43,901 bases of DNA, from IMG/VR virus record IMGVR_UViG_3300045988_025911, one strand, 5' to 3'. A program made the translations under genes and the position numbers. Positions within the stretch are counted from its first letter, which is position 1. The number at the start of each line of letters is the position of its first letter. The DNA is from a virus. The notes below the pieces were generated by a model, which searched no databases, was not told where the DNA came from, and saw only the letters and a program-made list of their open reading frames with translations. This document shows, in pieces, positions 1 to 43,901 of the stretch.

Positions 1-68
1 ACTTTGGCGCGGAAGGAGAGATTCGAACTCTCGCTCGCTTTTTAGACGACTACTCCCTTAGCAGGGGA
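1..68. repeat. attL: left copy of the 68-bp direct repeat, a truncated 3-prime fragment of tRNA-Ser(GCU) on the minus strand
   Basis: Identical to 43834-43901. The reverse complement reads anticodon loop CTGCTAA, a long variable arm, T arm GAGAG-TTCGAAT-CTCTC, acceptor CTTCCGC-G-CCA (CCA ends at nt 5). Sequence from 69 onward is not tRNA-like, so this copy lacks the tRNA 5-prime half. Confidence 0.85.
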
Positions 69-131: not shown

Positions 132-1238
132 TTACTTGTTTGTATCTTCTTGCAACAGATTCACGGCGTCGATCATGCCGCTCATATCCGGATGGACATA
201 TCGCTGCGTCGTCGTTATCTTTGTGTGCCGCATGATCTCCTTGATCGTAAATGGGTCAATGTTTTTGGATGCGAGGGCAGTTGCGGTCGTATGACGGCAG
301 GAATACGGTGGGAGTTTCTGCACATCGGCCAACTCTAAGCACTCATAGTATCGTTTGTAAAAGTTGTCTTTGTTTATGCAGCATACGTTCCCAATGCGTG
401 AGTCGCTTTCAGCGCACAAGGATTGAAGCAGCGGAGCGAGAAAATCTGGGAAAACCATCGGCGTCTCCTTGCGCTTTTTCGTTTTTATGCCGCCTTTGAC
501 AATCTCATTTTTATTAAAGTCGATCATGTCCTTTTTGAGCCGGAGCAGCTCGCCGGGCATCATTCCAGTATAAATCATTACCAGAACAAATCCAACGAAA
601 TGATCCTTTTCGTAAGCCGCCCATAGTTTCTTAATATCAGCATCGGAAAACGGCTCCGGGGACTTTTCTTCGAGGACGGGAAGCTTTATGTATTTCGCAA
701 GATTCACCGTGGTTTGCTTTTCGGCAATCGCAAGATTGTAGCAATGGGACACAACGGTTTTCATGTCCTTCCGCGTGTAATAGGTACTGGCGTTGTGGTC
801 GATCACATCTTGTATCTGCATAATTGTAAGACTATCAATTTCGCAGTCCGCGATCTCCGCCAACCGCTGAAATGCTTTGTCCGAAGCGCCCTGCCGGTCG
901 TTGGAAAGAGATAAGTAATCCCCTTTTTGGTATGTCTTGTAGTATTCACGGAGGGTGCAGCTTCGCTTGGACTCCTTGGGCGGGTTTGCAGCGTATTGCA
1001 GAGCCGCGCGCTTGGATGCAAAGCCGCCCTTCGTTTTCATCTTTTGCTGAAGCTTCCCGTTTTCGTCGATGTATGTTTTTTCAGTCCAACGGGCCGTCCA
1101 CGTTTTCCCTCGCTGGTATGCGTTTCCCTGCCCGTTCCCTCGCGTGCGGCTGCGCTGTACGATTTGCTTTTTCCCGCACCAGCAACAAAAAAGAGACCCA
1201 TCGGGGATCTCCATTTTGCATTTTACACATCGCTGCAT
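132..1238 (-). CDS. int: Tyrosine-type site-specific integrase with N-terminal zinc ribbon
   Basis: 368-aa ORF next to the att repeat. The C-terminal catalytic region (SCRHTTAT... and IMRHTKITTTQRYVH) fits the R..HxxR..Y signature of tyrosine recombinases. The N-terminus has CVKC...CCWC. Confidence 0.93.
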   Translation of the reverse strand: MQRCVKCKMEIPDGSLFCCWCGKKQIVQRSRTRGNGQGNAYQRGKTWTARWTEKTYIDENGKLQQKMKTKGGFASKRAALQYAANPPKESKRSCTLREYYKTYQKGDYLSLSNDRQGASDKAFQRLAEIADCEIDSLTIMQIQDVIDHNASTYYTRKDMKTVVSHCYNLAIAEKQTTVNLAKYIKLPVLEEKSPEPFSDADIKKLWAAYEKDHFVGFVLVMIYTGMMPGELLRLKKDMIDFNKNEIVKGGIKTKKRKETPMVFPDFLAPLLQSLCAESDSRIGNVCCINKDNFYKRYYECLELADVQKLPPYSCRHTTATALASKNIDPFTIKEIMRHTKITTTQRYVHPDMSGMIDAVNLLQEDTNK

Positions 1239-19499: not shown

Positions 19500-20078
19500 A
19501 TGCCAAAGGCAACCGCAGCCAAGGAGCAATCAACAGAGATCGCAAAGCCCAAGCGCAAGCGCAACAGGCCCGATCTTGCCAACTTCGGCCAAGAGTACAT
19601 AGAGCCGGGAGACAATGCCCGATACCTTCGGAATGCTATGGTTGCGTGGGACTTGCCCCCGATCGACATCAGCGATCCCAAGCAGGTTGAACACCGCATT
19701 CAAGAATATTTTGAATTCTGCATCAATCAGGATGCGAAGCCAAGCGTTCCCGGAATGGGGCTATGGCTAGGCGTGGACGCCACTACTATTCGCAAATGGA
19801 GAGCAGGCGACTACAGGAGCACAACGCACCTACCGGTGATAAAAAAAGCGATGTTTGTGCTTGAATCCCTCTGGAATGATTGGATGCAATCCGGCAAGAT
19901 CAACCCGGCGTCCGGCATTTTCATTGGTAAGAATATGTTCGGGTACAAAGATACACAAGATGTTGTGGTAACTCCGAATAATCCGCTAGATAACGGGACT
20001 TCCCCTGCTGAGATTGCGGACAAGTATAGGGATGCACTGCCGGAAGCGGCCCCTGTGCCGGATATGTCGGATAAGTAA
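19500..20078 (+). CDS. terS: Terminase small subunit
   Basis: Basic N-terminus; HTH-like PSVPGMGLWLGVDATTIRKW; GKINPASGIFIGKNMFGYKD is typical of Firmicutes phage TerS. Lies upstream of terL. Confidence 0.8.
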   Translation: MPKATAAKEQSTEIAKPKRKRNRPDLANFGQEYIEPGDNARYLRNAMVAWDLPPIDISDPKQVEHRIQEYFEFCINQDAKPSVPGMGLWLGVDATTIRKWRAGDYRSTTHLPVIKKAMFVLESLWNDWMQSGKINPASGIFIGKNMFGYKDTQDVVVTPNNPLDNGTSPAEIADKYRDALPEAAPVPDMSDK

Positions 20079-20392: not shown

Positions 20393-22036
20393 ATGTACGA
20401 AGAGACGTTAAGCAGGATCAGACGATTCATCGAGTCGAGACCGGAGGATAGCGCGGCGTATGGGGACTACTTCGACATTGTCAGGGCAATGTGGGAAACG
20501 GATAGATGGAATGCGTTCAGGCACAATCTGTGGCTGAGAAATGCGACGGCCTTGAAGGTAAAAGAAGTGGAAGATGCGAAGGCAGTTCTCAAATTTTTCG
20601 AAATAAACAAAAAGACGTATCTCTTGGCTGCGAAAGATGACTTCGATTCTTACTGCGTATATCTGGAATGGAACAGGGACAAGACGAAACGGTTTTATGT
20701 TCCGAGAAGGGCGACTCTCCGGCCACTTGTACAGGACTTGCAGGAACTGAACGATGGGAAGTTGGATTTCCTCGGGGTGTCTTTGCCTCCGCGAGTTGGG
20801 AAGTCTACGCTCTGCATTTTTTTCATGACGTGGATCATGGGGAAGAGACCGGAAGTTGCAAATGTCATGTCAGGACACTCGGATAAGCTGACGGACGGGT
20901 TCTACAGAGAGACAATGAACATCCTGACGGACGCGGAAACGTACTCTTGGGCTGACGTGTTCCCGGATGTTAAGGTCGTGGATAATTCCGCAAAGAACGA
21001 GACGATTGATCTGGAGCGGAAGAAGCGCTTCCCAACGTTCACGGCGCGGTCTGTCGGCGGAACACTGACCGGCGCAGTCGAAGTCGGAACGGGCGGATGC
21101 TTGTATGTGGACGATCTGATAGAGGATCTGGAAGAGTCCTTGAATCCTGTACGGCTGCAAGCAAAATACGATGCGTATTTGAATCAGCTCAAAGACAGAA
21201 AAAAAGACGGGGCTTTCGAGCTGATGGTCGGTACACGGTGGAACGTTGCCGATCCGCTGGGAAGGATTCAGGAGCAGTACGAAGGAAACCCGCGATATCG
21301 ATTCCGCGTGATTCCGGCCCTGAACGAAAAGGGAGAATCGAATTTCAACTACCAATACGGGCTTGGCTTCTCTACGGAGTACTACAAGGACATGAAGGCC
21401 AGCATCGACGATGCGACGTGGTGTGCGAAGTATCAGGGTAAACCTTATGTTCGTGAGGGACTTTTGTTCCCTGCGGAGTCTCTTCGGTATTACAACGGCG
21501 TTTTGCCGGAAGACGATTTCTATAAAGTCGCTGTGTGCGACGTGGCGTGGGGCGGCGGTGACAGCCTTGCAATGCCCTTTGCGTATGTAGCGACGGACGG
21601 CAGCGTTTATATTCACGACGTTATTTTCAGCAAGGGCGCGAAGGACGTTACGCAGCCTCTTGTAGTTAACCGGACGAAGGAGCACAAGCCGCACAAGGAG
21701 CGCTTCGAGGCGAACAACGGCGGCGGAGAATATGCTTCGACTGTTGATAGACTGCTCCGAGGAATTGGGGTGACAACGAATATCACTTCTCAGAGAGCGC
21801 CGAACAATCAAAGCAAGCTCGGGCGGATTATTCAGTACTCCCCGGAAATCAAGAAGTTCTATTTCATCGACAAAGAACACAGAACACCGGAATACGACGA
21901 GTTTATGCGCGAAGTGTGTACCTTCTCACAGACAGGTAAGAACGTGCACGACGACGCGCCGGATAGTTTGGCAATGTTAGCCGACGAATTGTATCATGGC
22001 TCTGCGCAAATCGAGATCAAACGCCGAACGTTCTAA
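20393..22036 (+). CDS. terL: Terminase large subunit
   Basis: 547 aa. Walker A-like GVSLPPRVGKST and a C-terminal nuclease-like region with conserved Asp residues. Positioned between terS and portal. Confidence 0.9.
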   Translation: MYEETLSRIRRFIESRPEDSAAYGDYFDIVRAMWETDRWNAFRHNLWLRNATALKVKEVEDAKAVLKFFEINKKTYLLAAKDDFDSYCVYLEWNRDKTKRFYVPRRATLRPLVQDLQELNDGKLDFLGVSLPPRVGKSTLCIFFMTWIMGKRPEVANVMSGHSDKLTDGFYRETMNILTDAETYSWADVFPDVKVVDNSAKNETIDLERKKRFPTFTARSVGGTLTGAVEVGTGGCLYVDDLIEDLEESLNPVRLQAKYDAYLNQLKDRKKDGAFELMVGTRWNVADPLGRIQEQYEGNPRYRFRVIPALNEKGESNFNYQYGLGFSTEYYKDMKASIDDATWCAKYQGKPYVREGLLFPAESLRYYNGVLPEDDFYKVAVCDVAWGGGDSLAMPFAYVATDGSVYIHDVIFSKGAKDVTQPLVVNRTKEHKPHKERFEANNGGGEYASTVDRLLRGIGVTTNITSQRAPNNQSKLGRIIQYSPEIKKFYFIDKEHRTPEYDEFMREVCTFSQTGKNVHDDAPDSLAMLADELYHGSAQIEIKRRTF

Positions 22037-22215
22037 ATTGATGCACGTTTGCGTGCGCTATTTTCGTTGAAAGTGTACGAAAACAGACGTTTTCACGTGA
22101 TTCTGTGCTATTATCTATGTAAAGAGTTCTGCTCCGGCCTTGGCACGGCCATGTTTCATTACTTTCCTCCTTGGCATCCGGCTCGTCCGGGTGTCAAGGC
22201 GAGAGCAGAACATAC

Positions 22216-22291
22216 GGGACATTAGCTCAGTTGGTAGAGCAGCGGACTGTTAATCCGCCTGTCGGAGGTTCAAACCCTTCATGCCCCGCCA
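22216..22291 (+). tRNA. tRNA-Asn (anticodon GTT), CCA encoded
   Basis: Manual cloverleaf: acceptor GGGACAT/ATGCCCC (one A-C mismatch), D arm GCTC-AGTTGGTA-GAGC, anticodon arm GCGGA-CTGTTAA-TCCGC, T arm GGAGG-TTCAAAC-CCTTC. Confidence 0.85.
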
Positions 22292-22294
22292 TAC

Positions 22295-22380
22295 GGTGGA
22301 TGAATCCGGGCGGCCCGGAGCCTGCTTTGAACACAGTGCGCGGAGAGATCCGTTGAGTTCGACACTTACATCCACCGCCA
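22295..22380 (+). tRNA. Atypical tRNA-like RNA with 8-bp acceptor, 4-bp T stem, long D stem and long variable arm (allo-tRNA/tRNA-Sec-like architecture); possible anticodon TGA
   Basis: GGTGGATG pairs with CATCCACC, followed by G-CCA. TCCGGG/CCCGGA forms a D stem. CGGA-GAGA-TCCG forms a variable hairpin. TGAG-TTCGACA-CTTA forms a T arm. The anticodon stem is weak (CTG/CAG) around TTTGAAC. Confidence 0.5.
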
Positions 22381-22528
22381 GCGGCCGGGTCGCGCCCGGA
22401 GAATGTGTGCGCGACTGTCTAGCCATACAGAGAATACCAACGCTTGCTGAAAACTACGCAGATAGCGGCAAACCTAGGATGCGCCGCAAAAATTCTGTGC
22501 GTGATAATCTAAGCAGGAAGGCAGTCAC

Positions 22529-22605
22529 GGGCCGTTATCTCAAATGGCTAGAGCGACCGGCTCATAACCGGTAACATCTCGGTTCGACTCCGAGACGGCC
22601 CACCA
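22529..22605 (+). tRNA. tRNA with CAT anticodon (Met elongator or Ile2), CCA encoded
   Basis: Acceptor GGGCCGT/ACGGCCC, anticodon arm ACCGG-CTCATAA-CCGGT, T arm CTCGG-TTCGACT-CCGAG. The D stem has one mismatch. Confidence 0.85.
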
Positions 22606-22622
22606 ACGAAAAGGGGTATCCT

Positions 22623-24113
22623 ATGCAGTTTGGACGCACGAAAATCAAAACCGCCGTTGAATATGTAGACGAAAGCAATGTTTTGACAGTGCTGGAATCT
22701 GCAATGAACGACCATATCTCCAATTGCGGGGATATCGAGTACCTCTACAACTACTTCAAGGGGCAGCAGCCCGTTTTACAGAGGAAAAAGGAAATTCGTC
22801 CTGAAATCTGCAATAAAATCGTTGAGAACATCGCGAATGAGATCGTTTCATTCAAGACGGGCTATCTGCTCGGCGAGCCGATCCAGTATGTAAGCCGCTC
22901 CGACACAGATACAAGCAAAGAAGTTGGCGAGCTGAACGACATTATGGAGCTTTGCAGCAAGGCTTGCGTGGACAACGACATTGCGGAATGGCTCTACATT
23001 TGTGGTGTAGGCTACAGGCTTGTGCTTCCGAACGACGCTGCGATTCTCGGGAAAGCGGTTCCGGCCCTCTCTGTCGGCGAGAAGCCAGACCTCGGAGACG
23101 ATACGCCATTCACTGTCTACTGCCTAGACCCGCGCGGCGCATTTGTCGTGCATTACTCCGGGGTCGGGGAAAAGCCTGTCATGGGCGTCAAGTACGTCAA
23201 GAAGGACGATTTGACGGTCGTTTTCAGCGTTTGGACAGGTTCGGAGTATTTTGAGATCGAGAGCGCCGGCGTAAACGGTACAGGACGGATCGTGAAGCAT
23301 GAGAAAAACACAGTCGGGTACATCCCGGTCGTGGAATATGTCCTGAATAACGCCAGACAGGGTGCGTTTGAGATCGTACTTCCACTTCTGGACGCGATCA
23401 ACGACACGCAGAGCGATAGGCTTGACGGCGTAGACCAGTTCATTCAGTCGCTTATGGTGCTTTATAATGCCGAGATCGACGAGGACAAGGCGAAAAACCT
23501 CCGGGATGCTGGGCTTATCATCCTGAAATCCTTCGGAGAGAACAAGGCCGACATCAAAGTCCTTAACGAGCAGCTAAACCAGACGCAGACGCAGACGCTC
23601 ATTGATGATCTGTACCAGAAGGTGCTTGAAATCGTCGGTATGCCGAACAGGAACGGCGGAACAAGCACAAGCGATACCGGAGCAGCGGTCATTGTCCGCG
23701 ACGGATGGTCTACGGCAGAGGCAAGAGCGAAATCCGACGAGGCGAACTTCAAGCGTTCTGAAAGAGAGTTCCTGAAAATCGCGCTTTCCATTATCAAGCG
23801 TTCCGGCGGGCTTTCGCTCATGCTGAAAGACGTCGATATCAAGTTCACGCGGCACAATTACGATAACATTCAGAGCAAGTCTCAGGTGCTCGTTTCGATG
23901 CTCAATAATTCGCACATCCATCCTGCTCTTGCATTTGAGCATTGCGGCCTGTTCTCAGACCCGCAGTCGGCGTTCAATATGTCGGAAGCGTACCATCAGG
24001 AGCAGATGAAGAAGTGGGAGCCGGTAGAGGTGGACAGCGATGAAAACGACGATCTACAGCAAACTGGACAAGGAGATTCCGACAGTCAAGAACAATCTCA
24101 GGAGGGAGTTTAA
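22623..24113 (+). CDS. Portal protein (SPP1 gp6-like)
   Basis: 496 aa. The N-terminal region YLYNYFKGQQPVLQRKKEIRPEICNKIVENIANEIVSFKTGYLLGEPIQY is typical of SPP1-type portals. Acidic C-terminus. Confidence 0.9.
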   Translation: MQFGRTKIKTAVEYVDESNVLTVLESAMNDHISNCGDIEYLYNYFKGQQPVLQRKKEIRPEICNKIVENIANEIVSFKTGYLLGEPIQYVSRSDTDTSKEVGELNDIMELCSKACVDNDIAEWLYICGVGYRLVLPNDAAILGKAVPALSVGEKPDLGDDTPFTVYCLDPRGAFVVHYSGVGEKPVMGVKYVKKDDLTVVFSVWTGSEYFEIESAGVNGTGRIVKHEKNTVGYIPVVEYVLNNARQGAFEIVLPLLDAINDTQSDRLDGVDQFIQSLMVLYNAEIDEDKAKNLRDAGLIILKSFGENKADIKVLNEQLNQTQTQTLIDDLYQKVLEIVGMPNRNGGTSTSDTGAAVIVRDGWSTAEARAKSDEANFKRSEREFLKIALSIIKRSGGLSLMLKDVDIKFTRHNYDNIQSKSQVLVSMLNNSHIHPALAFEHCGLFSDPQSAFNMSEAYHQEQMKKWEPVEVDSDENDDLQQTGQGDSDSQEQSQEGV

Positions 24114-25600: not shown

Positions 25601-26533
25601 ATGAACAAGCCCTATAGCAATTTCTTCCTCTCAAACGAGATCGAAGATCAGTACAATTCCCACCTTGATCTCCAGCAGTTCTGCACGGTTGACAACAACC
25701 TGACCGGAACTGCCGGTATGACCAGAAAGGTCAATCGTTATTCCGCGACCGCCGGTACGGAAAAGCTTGCAAAGGGTGTCGGCAACACTCAGACCATCGA
25801 GGTCAGCTATGTGCAGGATGAATACAAGATCCTTCTTGCACAGAATCGCTTCAAGTATCTCGACGAGGACGCAATGGAAGACCCCATGATCGTCCCCGTC
25901 GGTATGCGCCGCGCCGGTTCCGATATGTTCAACACTGTAAACAAGGACGTTTACAGCGAGTTCGCAAAGGCAACTATGGTCGTCCTTGCCACCAAACTGA
26001 ACTTTGATGCGTTTGCAGACGCACAGGCAATGCTCAACCTTGAAAACCTTGAGGGCGCGAGCATTTTTGCATTCGTCAGCCCGTCCGATGTTGCAGAACT
26101 CCGGAAGGAACTTAAGGATACGCTCCAGTACGTGGAGTCGTTTGCAAGAAACGGCTATGTCGGTACGGTTGCAGGCGTGAACGTTTACACCAAGAAGGAC
26201 GCAACGCCCGGCTCTGTCTATGTGGCGACCAAGGAAGCCGTCACTCTCTTCAACAAGAAGGGCGTCGAGGTCGAGCAGAACATCGCGAACAATCGATCCG
26301 AGGACGCGGCGAACAAGCGCGAGAACTACATCTTCTCCCGCAAATACTACCTTGCAGCGCTGACGGACGAGACCAAGGACGTCAAGGTGTTCAAGGGCAC
26401 CGCAACCGCAGCAACGGAGGAAACCGTGAACGCCAGCAAGACTTACTACGCGAAGTCTGGCGTTGGCTATGTAAAGGTCACGCCCGCATCCGGCGACAAC
26501 CCCAAGACCAAGGGCTGGTTTACCATCGCCTGA
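25601..26533 (+). CDS. Major capsid protein
   Basis: 310 aa directly after the scaffold gene. Composition and position are typical of HK97-fold capsid proteins of Firmicutes siphophages. Confidence 0.85.
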   Translation: MNKPYSNFFLSNEIEDQYNSHLDLQQFCTVDNNLTGTAGMTRKVNRYSATAGTEKLAKGVGNTQTIEVSYVQDEYKILLAQNRFKYLDEDAMEDPMIVPVGMRRAGSDMFNTVNKDVYSEFAKATMVVLATKLNFDAFADAQAMLNLENLEGASIFAFVSPSDVAELRKELKDTLQYVESFARNGYVGTVAGVNVYTKKDATPGSVYVATKEAVTLFNKKGVEVEQNIANNRSEDAANKRENYIFSRKYYLAALTDETKDVKVFKGTATAATEETVNASKTYYAKSGVGYVKVTPASGDNPKTKGWFTIA

Positions 26534-39769: not shown

Positions 39770-40087
39770 ATGGACTACACGAACATCATCACGGCAGTCA
39801 TTACGCTGCTGACGGCGCTTGTGTCGGCGTTCCTCATCCCGTGGATGAAAGAGCGAATCGGCGCGGAAAAGCTCGCCAAATGGCAGCAGTACGTTGATAT
39901 CGCGGTCAGGGCTGCGGAGCAGCTCTACAACGCGACGGACGGCGCGGAAAAGAAAGCCTATGTGCTGCGCTATCTCGCGTACAAGGGCATCCAGTTTGAC
40001 AGTGACACCGTTGACAAAATGATCGAATCGGCGGTGCTGACGCTCCACCATGAGCTTTATGGGGGTGCTTCCGATGCCGGTAATTAA
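39770..40087 (+). CDS. Holin, LL-H-like family
   Basis: An N-terminal TM helix, then DIAVRAAEQLY...GAEKKAYVLRYL...IESAV, typical of LL-H holins. Directly upstream of the amidase gene. Confidence 0.7.
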   Translation: MDYTNIITAVITLLTALVSAFLIPWMKERIGAEKLAKWQQYVDIAVRAAEQLYNATDGAEKKAYVLRYLAYKGIQFDSDTVDKMIESAVLTLHHELYGGASDAGN

Positions 40088-40769
40088 AGATGCGCTCACG
40101 CCGATCAACCATCGAGCGGGCGGCTGCACGCCGAAATGGATCGTCGTACACTACTTCGGCGCACTCGGCTCTGCGGCCAGCGTGGCCGAGTGGTTCAAGA
40201 ATCCGCAGGCCAGAGCCAGCGCGCACTACGCCGTGGACGAGGGCGATATCATTTACAGGTGCGTGCGGGAATCTGACGTTGCGTGGCACTGCGGAGACGG
40301 TACGCTGCATCCGGAGTGCCGGAACTGGAACTCCATCGGCGTGGAGCTGCGGCCGGGGAAGGTAAACCGGAAGCGCATGGGAGCCTACGATACAGACTGG
40401 TTCTTTGAGAAAAAGGTACTGGACAATGCCGAGTGGCTGATCCACAAGCTCATGAAGGAGCACAACATTCCGGCGGATCACATCATCCGGCACTATGATG
40501 TGTCCGGGAAGTACTGCCCGCGCCCGTTCGTCGGCGCGGACATGAACACCTACTATCACACCACTGGCAACGAGCAGTGGAAAAAATTCTTGGAAAGGTT
40601 TGAAGATGAAGTGGTAGAGAAAAGCAAAATGATCGTGGACGGCAAGGAGATTGCCGTCGAACGCATCCTGAAAAACGGCACGAACTATGTCAAGGTGCGC
40701 GATATCGCCGCCGCGCTGGATCTGAGGGTCAGCAATAAGGGCAATATCGCCGTGCTGGACACGAAGTAA
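40074..40769 (+). CDS. N-acetylmuramoyl-L-alanine amidase endolysin (Amidase_2/PGRP type) with C-terminal wall-binding-like domain
   Basis: IVVHYFGA...SAHYAVD...AWHCG...NSIGVEL...IIRHYDVSGKYCP is the Amidase_2 zinc-amidase pattern. Confidence 0.9.
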   Translation: MPVIKDALTPINHRAGGCTPKWIVVHYFGALGSAASVAEWFKNPQARASAHYAVDEGDIIYRCVRESDVAWHCGDGTLHPECRNWNSIGVELRPGKVNRKRMGAYDTDWFFEKKVLDNAEWLIHKLMKEHNIPADHIIRHYDVSGKYCPRPFVGADMNTYYHTTGNEQWKKFLERFEDEVVEKSKMIVDGKEIAVERILKNGTNYVKVRDIAAALDLRVSNKGNIAVLDTK

Positions 40770-43790: not shown

Positions 43791-43833
43791 CATAAAAAGT
43801 GCCGATTTTAGCCTCAACACAGCTAAAATCGGC
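43791..43833 (-). terminator. Phage-borne intrinsic terminator directly downstream of the tRNA-Ser 3-prime end
   Basis: 12-bp stem GCCGATTTTAGC/GCTAAAATCGGC (43801-43833). On the minus strand it is followed by CACTTTTTAT. It begins 4 nt after the tRNA CCA. Confidence 0.7.
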
Positions 43834-43901
43834 ACTTTGGCGCGGAAGGAGAGATTCGAACTCTCGCTCGCTTTTTAGACGACTACTCCCTTAGCAGGGG
43901 A
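43834..43901. repeat. attR: right copy of the 68-bp direct repeat
   Basis: Identical to 1-68. Confidence 0.85.
43838..43901 (-). tRNA. tRNA-Ser (anticodon GCT), 3-prime portion; the 5-prime part runs off the window
   Basis: Read on the minus strand: anticodon loop CTGCTAA, long variable arm (class II tRNA), T arm GAGAG-TTCGAAT-CTCTC, acceptor strand CTTCCGC, discriminator G, CCA. This copy faces host DNA on its 5-prime side, so it is probably the intact gene. Confidence 0.7.

Follow-up and report, generated by a model that had tools for sequence, protein, structure and literature searches.

How should an 86-nt sequence be read that stands between two canonical tRNA genes of a phage, is itself shaped like a tRNA and is missed by standard annotation? 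The sequence occupies positions 22295..22380 on the plus strand of the IMG/VR virus record IMGVR_UViG_3300045988_025911, a stretch of 43,901 nt that was analysed at its full length and is called the window here, and it lies within a 586-nt gap between the large terminase and portal genes. It starts 3 nt past the CCA of a tRNA-Asn gene, and a tRNA-Met(CAT) gene follows 148 nt downstream of it; its place 3 nt past tRNA-Asn and between two canonical tRNAs had been noticed in a sequence-only reading of the DNA, and ARAGORN and Rfam find both flanking tRNAs. The element has a defined RNA structure on which purifying selection acts, it is very probably a real, selected, tRNA-shaped RNA gene, and we consider it probable that it is a functional (8/4) class II tRNA-Ser(UGA) that is charged with serine and decodes.

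Structure of the element

The acceptor stem is formed by 8 bp between GGTGGATG (22295-22302) and CATCCACC (22369-22376) and is followed by the discriminator G (22377) and an encoded CCA (22378-22380). The D arm (22305..22319) has a 6-bp stem, TCCGGG (22305-22310) with CCCGGA (22314-22319), closed by a 3-nt loop, CGG, and the anticodon arm (22320..22339) carries the loop UUUGAAC (22326-22332) with TGA as anticodon (22328-22330). The long variable arm (22340..22353) is a 14-nt hairpin with a 5-bp stem, a G·U pair plus CGGA/TCCG, and a 4-nt loop, GAGA. In the T arm (22354..22368) a 4-bp stem, TGAG (22354-22357) with CTTA (22365-22368), which pairs as U-A, G·U, A-U and G-C, carries the 7-nt loop TTCGACA, read as U54 U55 C56 R57 A58. 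The stems and loops that the sequence-only reading had described within 22295-22380 are all present there. The UUCGA T loop, GG in the D loop, U33 together with A37, G73 and the encoded CCA are hallmarks of a tRNA.

The acceptor-T helix measures 12 bp and is split 8 + 4 rather than 7 + 5. A 7/5 geometry was considered and rejected, since it would need U·C as the fifth pair of the T stem, while the 8/4 form has G-C at its eighth acceptor position; the folding energies are −33.3 kcal/mol for the 8/4 and −30.4 kcal/mol for the 7/5 fold. The cloverleaf, which had been drawn by eye, is recovered by RNAfold without constraints as the minimum free energy structure (−34.8 kcal/mol, z = −2.89, with 3 of 200 shuffled sequences as good). 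A descriptor consisting of an 8-bp acceptor stem, a 4-bp T stem, a TTCRA loop and NCCA matches only this site in the window and has no match in 200 second-order Markov random sequences of 44 kb, and a covariance model, R1, has a single match in the window, at 114.8 bits.

The anticodon arm is built from G26-C45, C27-G44, a bulged U43 (22337), C28-G42, U29-A41 and G30-C40, and a C31·A39 juxtaposition closes its 7-nt loop; its pair probabilities are about 0.68. The weak arm with three Watson-Crick pairs that had been described is seen, together with two outer pairs beyond the bulge. In the 7-nt register the loop reads U32 U33 U34 G35 A36 A37 C38, which gives the anticodon UGA for the codon UCA, a register that is uncertain should C31·A39 be open.

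Covariation and conservation in related phages

Homologs of the element were sought at portal-anchored loci and with DNA patterns in IMG/VR, by a pattern scan of metagenomes, and on contigs that encode an identical portal. Nine distinct sequence variants were gathered from related gut-phage contigs, all keeping the fold. The RNAalifold consensus of the nine is the same cloverleaf, and the RNAfold minimum is this cloverleaf in four of five other variants folded, the fifth, which has an A·C pair, shifting its acceptor stem. Statistics on pair cells, shuffles and slid registers were computed on seven of the variants. Standard pairs fill 99.5% of the pair cells, and compensatory double changes are found at four base pairs, three in the variable arm and one in the acceptor stem; the observed covariation score was reached by none of 500 shuffles, and slid registers fall to 21-52% paired. 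Compensatory changes in related phages had been named beforehand as a sign of a genuine fold, and these four pairs supply them.

Among the variants, acceptor pair 3 covaries, occurring as U-A, C-G or U·G, pair 7 is U-A or U·G, and pair 6 is A·C in one variant. The variable-arm stem reads CGGA/TCCG, CAGC/GCTG or TAGC/GCTA, with compensated doubles at three of its five pairs, and the loop above it is GAGA, GAGG or GCGA, two of its positions varying. The window copy and seven of the nine variants have a D loop of 3 nt, CGG, and the other two variants one of 4 nt, CGGC, with a C at the Y20 place. The 6-bp D stem is present in all copies and invariant in the intact ones, the anticodon arm is invariant in all nine variants save for the bulge nucleotide, U or C, and the T arm and the discriminator G73 are the same in every variant. 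The substitutions fall in loops or the bulge, or are wobble or compensated changes in stems, with the one A·C as the exception, and the G·U wobbles of the T stem, variable arm and acceptor stem are compatible with the plus strand only.

The strength of the selection can be judged from the most divergent relatives, L018 and L022, to which the element is 93-94% identical; the neighbouring tRNA-Asn and tRNA-Met are 91% and 95-96% identical to theirs, as against 49-72% for the surrounding intergenic segments and 58-80% for the flanking coding DNA.

Blastn of the 86 nt against 50,697 GenBank phages returned short chance matches only, and the covariance model found no homolog in the distant phages L052, L053 and L021, with portals 40-53% identical, nor in the relatives L009 and L013. 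The D-arm pattern gave additional loci in IMG/VR (L033-L035, L037 and L038) that were rejected as chance matches within coding sequence, and a pattern from the anticodon to the T loop, run on 185,579 GTDB genomes, gave two matches that were discarded likewise, both being chance occurrences in coding DNA. The metagenome pattern scan added four further copies of the same lineage and one chance match.

Serine identity and decoding

Six of the 64 possible anticodons are those of serine. The element carries serine identity marks outside its anticodon, namely the long variable arm, G73 and the acceptor pairs G1-C72 and G2-C71, and the serine reading is coherent because these marks agree with the serine anticodon UGA. 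EF-Tu accepts an acceptor-T helix with a total length of 12 bp, the length found here. The description of the element as 8/4 allo-tRNA-like and probably serine-accepting, already made in the sequence-only reading, is supported by a fold from two programs, by the compensatory changes, by conservation like that of the neighbouring tRNAs and by the identity marks together with UGA.

Bacterial seryl-tRNA synthetase (SerRS) recognises the variable-arm helix, G73 and the first acceptor pairs, and not the anticodon (PMC5389517), and selection that keeps the variable-arm helix intact fits this mode of recognition. In the same study allo-tRNAs of the (8/4) and (9/3) types were processed, charged and used by the translation system of E. 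coli, and serine was inserted in E. coli by an (8/4) allo-tRNA (PMC5389517).

For the element itself, we infer processing, serylation and decoding along the following route. A conserved promoter of the extended −10 type would drive its transcription together with that of tRNA-Asn and tRNA-Met, with a stable hairpin ahead of them at the 5' end (promoter and hairpin are described below). RNase P would then cut 3 nt past the CCA of tRNA-Asn, and the encoded CCA ends would be trimmed. The host SerRS would charge the product through the variable-arm helix, G73 and the first acceptor pairs, and EF-Tu would accept it on account of the normal 12-bp length of its acceptor-T helix. During infection or lysogeny the anticodon UGA would read UCA, by wobble UCG, and possibly other UCN serine codons.

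Comparison with known tRNAs

Serine tRNAs of the (8/4) type have been described from bacteriophages, from proteobacteria and from rumen Clostridia (Mukai et al. 2017, NAR 45:2776, PMC5389517), and by structural definition the element is most likely a member of this (8/4) allo-tRNA / (8/4) tRNA-Ser class, a new example and not a new kind. The likeness extends to the 12-bp acceptor branch split 8/4 and the 7-nt T loop, to a long D stem with a very small loop, which both share with tRNA-Sec, to the long variable arm, to G73 (the class has G73 or U73) and to the serine anticodon; it includes the placement in a phage tRNA cluster, and the likely host group fits the reported distribution. A serine anticodon is what sets (8/4) tRNA-Ser apart from missense allo-tRNAs, and here it is UGA. 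The sequence-only reading had assigned the element to a rare class known mainly from Clostridia. The rarity stands, but the case is less exotic than it had seemed, as (8/4) tRNA-Ser of bacteriophages and rumen Clostridia had already been stated (PMC5389517).

There are also differences from the published members. The D stem of the class carries a tetraloop as in tRNA-Sec, with Y20 in those classed as allo-tRNA, and the anticodon stem is longer than the canonical one (PMC5389517), whereas the window copy has a D loop of 3 nt, which is the 4-nt CGGC in some relatives, and in place of a clean long anticodon stem it has five Watson-Crick pairs over six layers, with the bulged U or C and the closing C·A. 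The published set was reached by way of a tRNA-Sec covariance model, and this model does not match the element, which concerns the route of discovery and not the structural definition. The published phage (8/4) cases belong to marine macroalgal-surface and alpha-proteobacterial phages, while the present one belongs to a temperate human-gut phage. No follow-up or experimental work on phage-borne 8/4 tRNAs was found in the literature searched.

With bacterial tRNA-Sec (selC) the element shares the 8-bp acceptor stem, the 6-bp D stem with its tiny loop, the long variable arm and G73, and the element is, like it, a likely SerRS substrate. tRNA-Sec is however 8/5, with a 13-bp branch that is rejected by EF-Tu, and identity with it was ruled out by the 12-bp branch, the anticodon UGA rather than UCA and the lack of an Rfam match. 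Canonical class II tRNA-Ser resembles the element in its long variable arm, G73, encoded CCA, UUCGA T loop and serine anticodon; it differs in its 7/5 form, in which the D arm is normal, the acceptor stem has 7 bp and the T stem 5 bp. The tRNA-Ser(GCU) fragment at the integration site of this phage (see below) displays such a T stem, GAGAG/CTCTC, and the 7-nt acceptor strand, whereas the element has no fifth T pair.

Some phage tRNAs have further been suggested or shown to act against defences that cleave tRNA (van den Berg et al. 2023, PMC10264068), as with a T5 tRNA acting against PARIS (PMC11464382) and evasion of a retron (PMC11555353). Like these, the element is phage-encoded and part of a small accessory cluster, and its anticodon arm departs from the usual form. 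The defence-countering tRNAs are canonical cloverleaves that correspond to known nuclease targets (Lys, Tyr and others), whereas for the element no nuclease targeting tRNA-Ser(UGA) was identified, and nothing links it to a defence system.

Evidence against decoding and alternative explanations

Several observations weigh against a serine-decoding tRNA and have to be set beside those above. All homologs come from one phage lineage (at least 89% identity), so the covariation rests on few independent events, and the D stem, anticodon arm and T arm, which do not vary in intact copies, yield no covariation evidence for their helices. ARAGORN makes no call at the element in its default run, a check that had been suggested and that went against the gene; relaxed to 80% thresholds, it forces a poor 7/5 fold with a 4-base anticodon. 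The Rfam models for tRNA (RF00005) and tRNA-Sec have no match there, neither at gathering thresholds nor, on 22030-22630, with E up to 10. The anticodon stem is irregular: it has the bulge and the loop-closing C·A, and no more than three pairs form in the standard register. The window copy has 3 nt in its D loop where the described class has a tetraloop. Among serine codons UCA accounts for 9% in late genes and 10% in early ones, and its late-gene frequency is 5.7 per 1000 codons; as the codon is rare in the phage, simple codon supplementation is not obviously needed, and no codon-usage support for a supply of UCA by the element was found in the phage genes.

The gene has, moreover, been lost in part of the lineage. 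In L001 and L020 the 3' two-thirds of the element are missing, while tRNA-Asn and tRNA-Met are kept; it is cut after about nt 28 and replaced by about 750 nt with an open reading frame (ORF) of 131 aa. The D stem of these truncated copies has a G·U pair and, by a double change, A-U in place of G-C. A split tRNA with an intron was considered for both and rejected, since no 3' half lies downstream, and the state is therefore one of loss. With some close relatives having lost it and more distant ones being without it, the element is an accessory gene.

In the main rival reading the element is a structured, tRNA-like RNA with no part in decoding, which would act as a decoy or nuclease-insensitive stand-in against defence nucleases, or as a processing or regulatory element of the cluster, and whose odd anticodon arm would be the point of the molecule rather than a defect. 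We keep it in this place because the anticodon stem is odd and UCA is among the least used serine codons. It draws on an anticodon arm that is irregular and yet invariant in sequence across the nine variants, and on the rarity of UCA in the phage. Many allo-tRNAs, for example those of the UAU group, are inactive in translation and linked to toxin-antitoxin loci (Mukai et al.), and in published work, PMC10264068 and papers on PARIS, retrons and Schlafen, phage tRNAs are suggested or shown to oppose tRNA cleavage by defence systems. The invariance of the anticodon arm is, however, statistically indistinguishable from that of the rest, with few variable columns overall. A serine anticodon with matching identity elements, U33 and A37, G73 and CCA exceeds what a decoy needs and suits a working tRNA-Ser, no nuclease or defence partner was identified, and the gene is dispensable in some relatives. 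We regard a non-decoding role as unlikely.

A related thought is that the 8/4 shape and the conserved loose anticodon arm are themselves an adaptation, which would place the element, as a serine tRNA or a tRNA mimic, beyond recognition or cleavage by tRNA-targeting nucleases of the host or by other tRNA-binding defence factors. During infection it would then either stand in for host tRNA-Ser(UGA) or sequester the attacker. We consider such an adaptation quite unlikely.

The element could also be a decaying pseudogene, a formerly working tRNA-Ser, (8/4) or canonical, in which the anticodon stem and the D loop are degenerating and which is retained by linkage alone. The weak anticodon stem with its bulge and C·A would suit decay, and so would the one D-loop base lost in the window copy, the A·C in the acceptor stem of one variant, the outright truncation in L001 and L020 and the rejection by standard finders. 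A decaying gene would not, however, be expected to be conserved as well as bona fide tRNAs and far above the flanking intergenic DNA, nor to have its stem changes compensated and 99.5% of its pair cells paired. The irregularities of the anticodon arm are common to all variants instead of accumulating differently in each, and the 8/4 geometry is clean, with its G-C eighth pair and canonical T loop. A degraded canonical tRNA, which the sequence-only reading had offered as the way in which it could be wrong, does not agree with compensated stems and with 93-94% identity against 49-72% in the flanks, and a pseudogene is in our judgement improbable.

A recoding or mis-decoding tRNA, also put forward earlier as a recoding tool, fared worse. 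Since C31·A39 is no standard pair, the loop may be one of 9 nt, CUUUGAACA, giving UUG or a four-base anticodon; alternatively, the tRNA-Sec-like D arm and 8-bp acceptor stem would let SelA convert Ser to Sec, and a sense codon would thereby take on another meaning in the phage. SelA/PSTK does bind allo-tRNAs at their long D stem (PMC7590224), and most allo-tRNAs have non-serine anticodons (PMC5389517). The normal 7-nt register, on the other hand, gives U33, UGA and A37, a serine anticodon that matches the serine identity, the ORFs of the phage are long and uninterrupted in the standard bacterial code, table 11, with no sign of recoding, and no selenium-pathway gene was found among the phage proteins scanned, which makes this reading very improbable.

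A chance fold or a piece of coding region, which could be argued from the ATG-initiated 97-aa mechanical ORF that spans the element (22281-22574), is refuted and has practically no weight, as this ORF is broken by stops or frameshifts in five relatives, the descriptor is absent from the 200 random sequences and the stems covary.

The tRNA cluster and its transcription

In the terminase-portal gap ARAGORN and Rfam find tRNA-Asn(GTT) and a tRNA with a CAT anticodon and nothing else. Both are canonical and on the plus strand with an encoded CCA: the tRNA-Asn at 22216..22291 (Rfam tRNA, 65.8 bits) and the CAT-anticodon tRNA, of the Met or possibly the Ile2 type, at 22529..22605 (54.8 bits). The tRNA-Asn has an A4·C69 mismatch in its acceptor stem in the Rfam alignment and differs at several sites between relatives, at 91-100% identity. 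The CAT-anticodon tRNA is the last of the cluster, 17 nt before the portal gene, and is not an initiator, because it has G1-C72; its C4-G69 and C5-G68 pairs resemble features typical of tRNA-Ile2 with a lysidine modification. The frequency of AUA per 1000 codons is 13.5 in the early and 6.6 in the late genes of the phage.

Upstream of the cluster, a terminator-like hairpin follows the large terminase (22042-22057), and an extended −10 promoter-like motif, TGCTATTAT, lies at 22106..22114 on the plus strand; the motif was not called by a simple −35/−10 scan and is invariant in relatives in which the surrounding intergenic DNA is about 50% identical. Directly before tRNA-Asn, on the same strand, stands a very stable hairpin of 86 nt (22126..22211; −44.1 kcal/mol, z = −5.56, equalled by none of 200 shuffles). 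L018 and L022 retain its stems, one pair having changed from U-A to A-U, and it has no Rfam match. The motif probably drives a transcript of the hairpin and the tRNA cluster, of which the hairpin is likely the 5' leader, and the hairpin may serve this transcript as leader, stabiliser or processing element. Given the terminator-like hairpin, the invariant −10 motif and the stable leader hairpin, we propose a polycistronic transcript that comprises the hairpin, tRNA-Asn, the (8/4) tRNA-Ser and tRNA-Met.

In the relatives, the gap between terminase and portal is a hot spot of gene insertion. The inserts in the two phages with a truncated element (L001:3118-3905 and L020:3120-3905), in which the 131-aa ORF, without a PHROG match, replaces the 3' part of the 8/4 tRNA and the spacer, are one case; another is an insert of about 390 nt before tRNA-Met that carries an ORF with an HExxH motif (L004:3516-3907; phrog_1233). 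Related phages also have a further irregular tRNA-like gene between tRNA-Met and portal that is absent from the window (L009:3912-3987, and the same place in L010-L012, L018 and L022). This is a 7/5 cloverleaf with a good T arm that lacks an encoded CCA and whose anticodon loop has 8 nt (GGACAGCA or GGGCAGCA) and no U33; it scores 33 bits with the Rfam tRNA model and is missed by ARAGORN.

The phage and its host

The window is a complete or near-complete genome of a temperate siphophage-like virus of about 44 kb. It encodes a tyrosine-type integrase (132-1238, minus strand), the small terminase (19500-20078), the large terminase (20393-22036, plus strand; phrog_38, E = 2e-60), an SPP1-type portal (22623-24113), the major head protein (25601-26533) and an amidase endolysin (40050-40769), in addition to repressor-like regulators, an Erf-like annealing protein, a replication initiator and a DNA methyltransferase. 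The large terminase matches PHROG families only, with no Pfam-A match above threshold, and is a divergent TerL. Identical portal proteins are found on contigs of 43-45 kb from human gut metagenomes, and the nearest annotated portals are those of uncultured human faecal phages and of phages of Bacillota, e.g. [Clostridium] innocuum; the hosts are likely gut Clostridia-like Bacillota.

The two ends of the window (1-68 and 43834-43901, minus strand) form an exact 68-nt terminal direct repeat. Read as its reverse complement, the repeat corresponds to the 3' portion of a canonical 7/5 class II tRNA-Ser(GCU): it runs from the anticodon stem (loop CUGCUAA) and takes in the variable arm, the 5-bp T stem (GAGAG/CTCTC), the acceptor strand, G73 and CCA. 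As it adjoins the integrase, the repeat is almost certainly the core of the attachment (att) site, and the phage would accordingly integrate into a host tRNA-Ser(GCU) gene. Among annotated phage tRNA-Ser genes, the core matches that of Faecalibacterium phage Aster at 82%, the best with a cultured host, and that of an uncultured human faecal phage at 98.6%. On the minus strand, a terminator hairpin (43801-43833) and a T run come after the right-end core. The tRNA cluster and the integration site have no common sequence of at least 12 nt.

Implications

Non-canonical 8/4 tRNAs are rare and are missed by standard annotation and, as ARAGORN and Rfam both pass over this element, inventories of phage tRNAs and analyses of codon supply undercount them. 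The element offers a clean, conserved example with natural compensatory variants, flanked by two canonical tRNAs in the genome of a temperate phage of the human gut, and is a convenient test case for whether an (8/4) tRNA-Ser is really charged and used in translation. Since genetic-code expansion uses long-D-stem tRNAs with a 12-bp branch as chassis, another natural sequence is of some practical value. The nuclease-evasion reading, if true, would give the non-canonical cloverleaf its first functional role in the conflict between phage and host.

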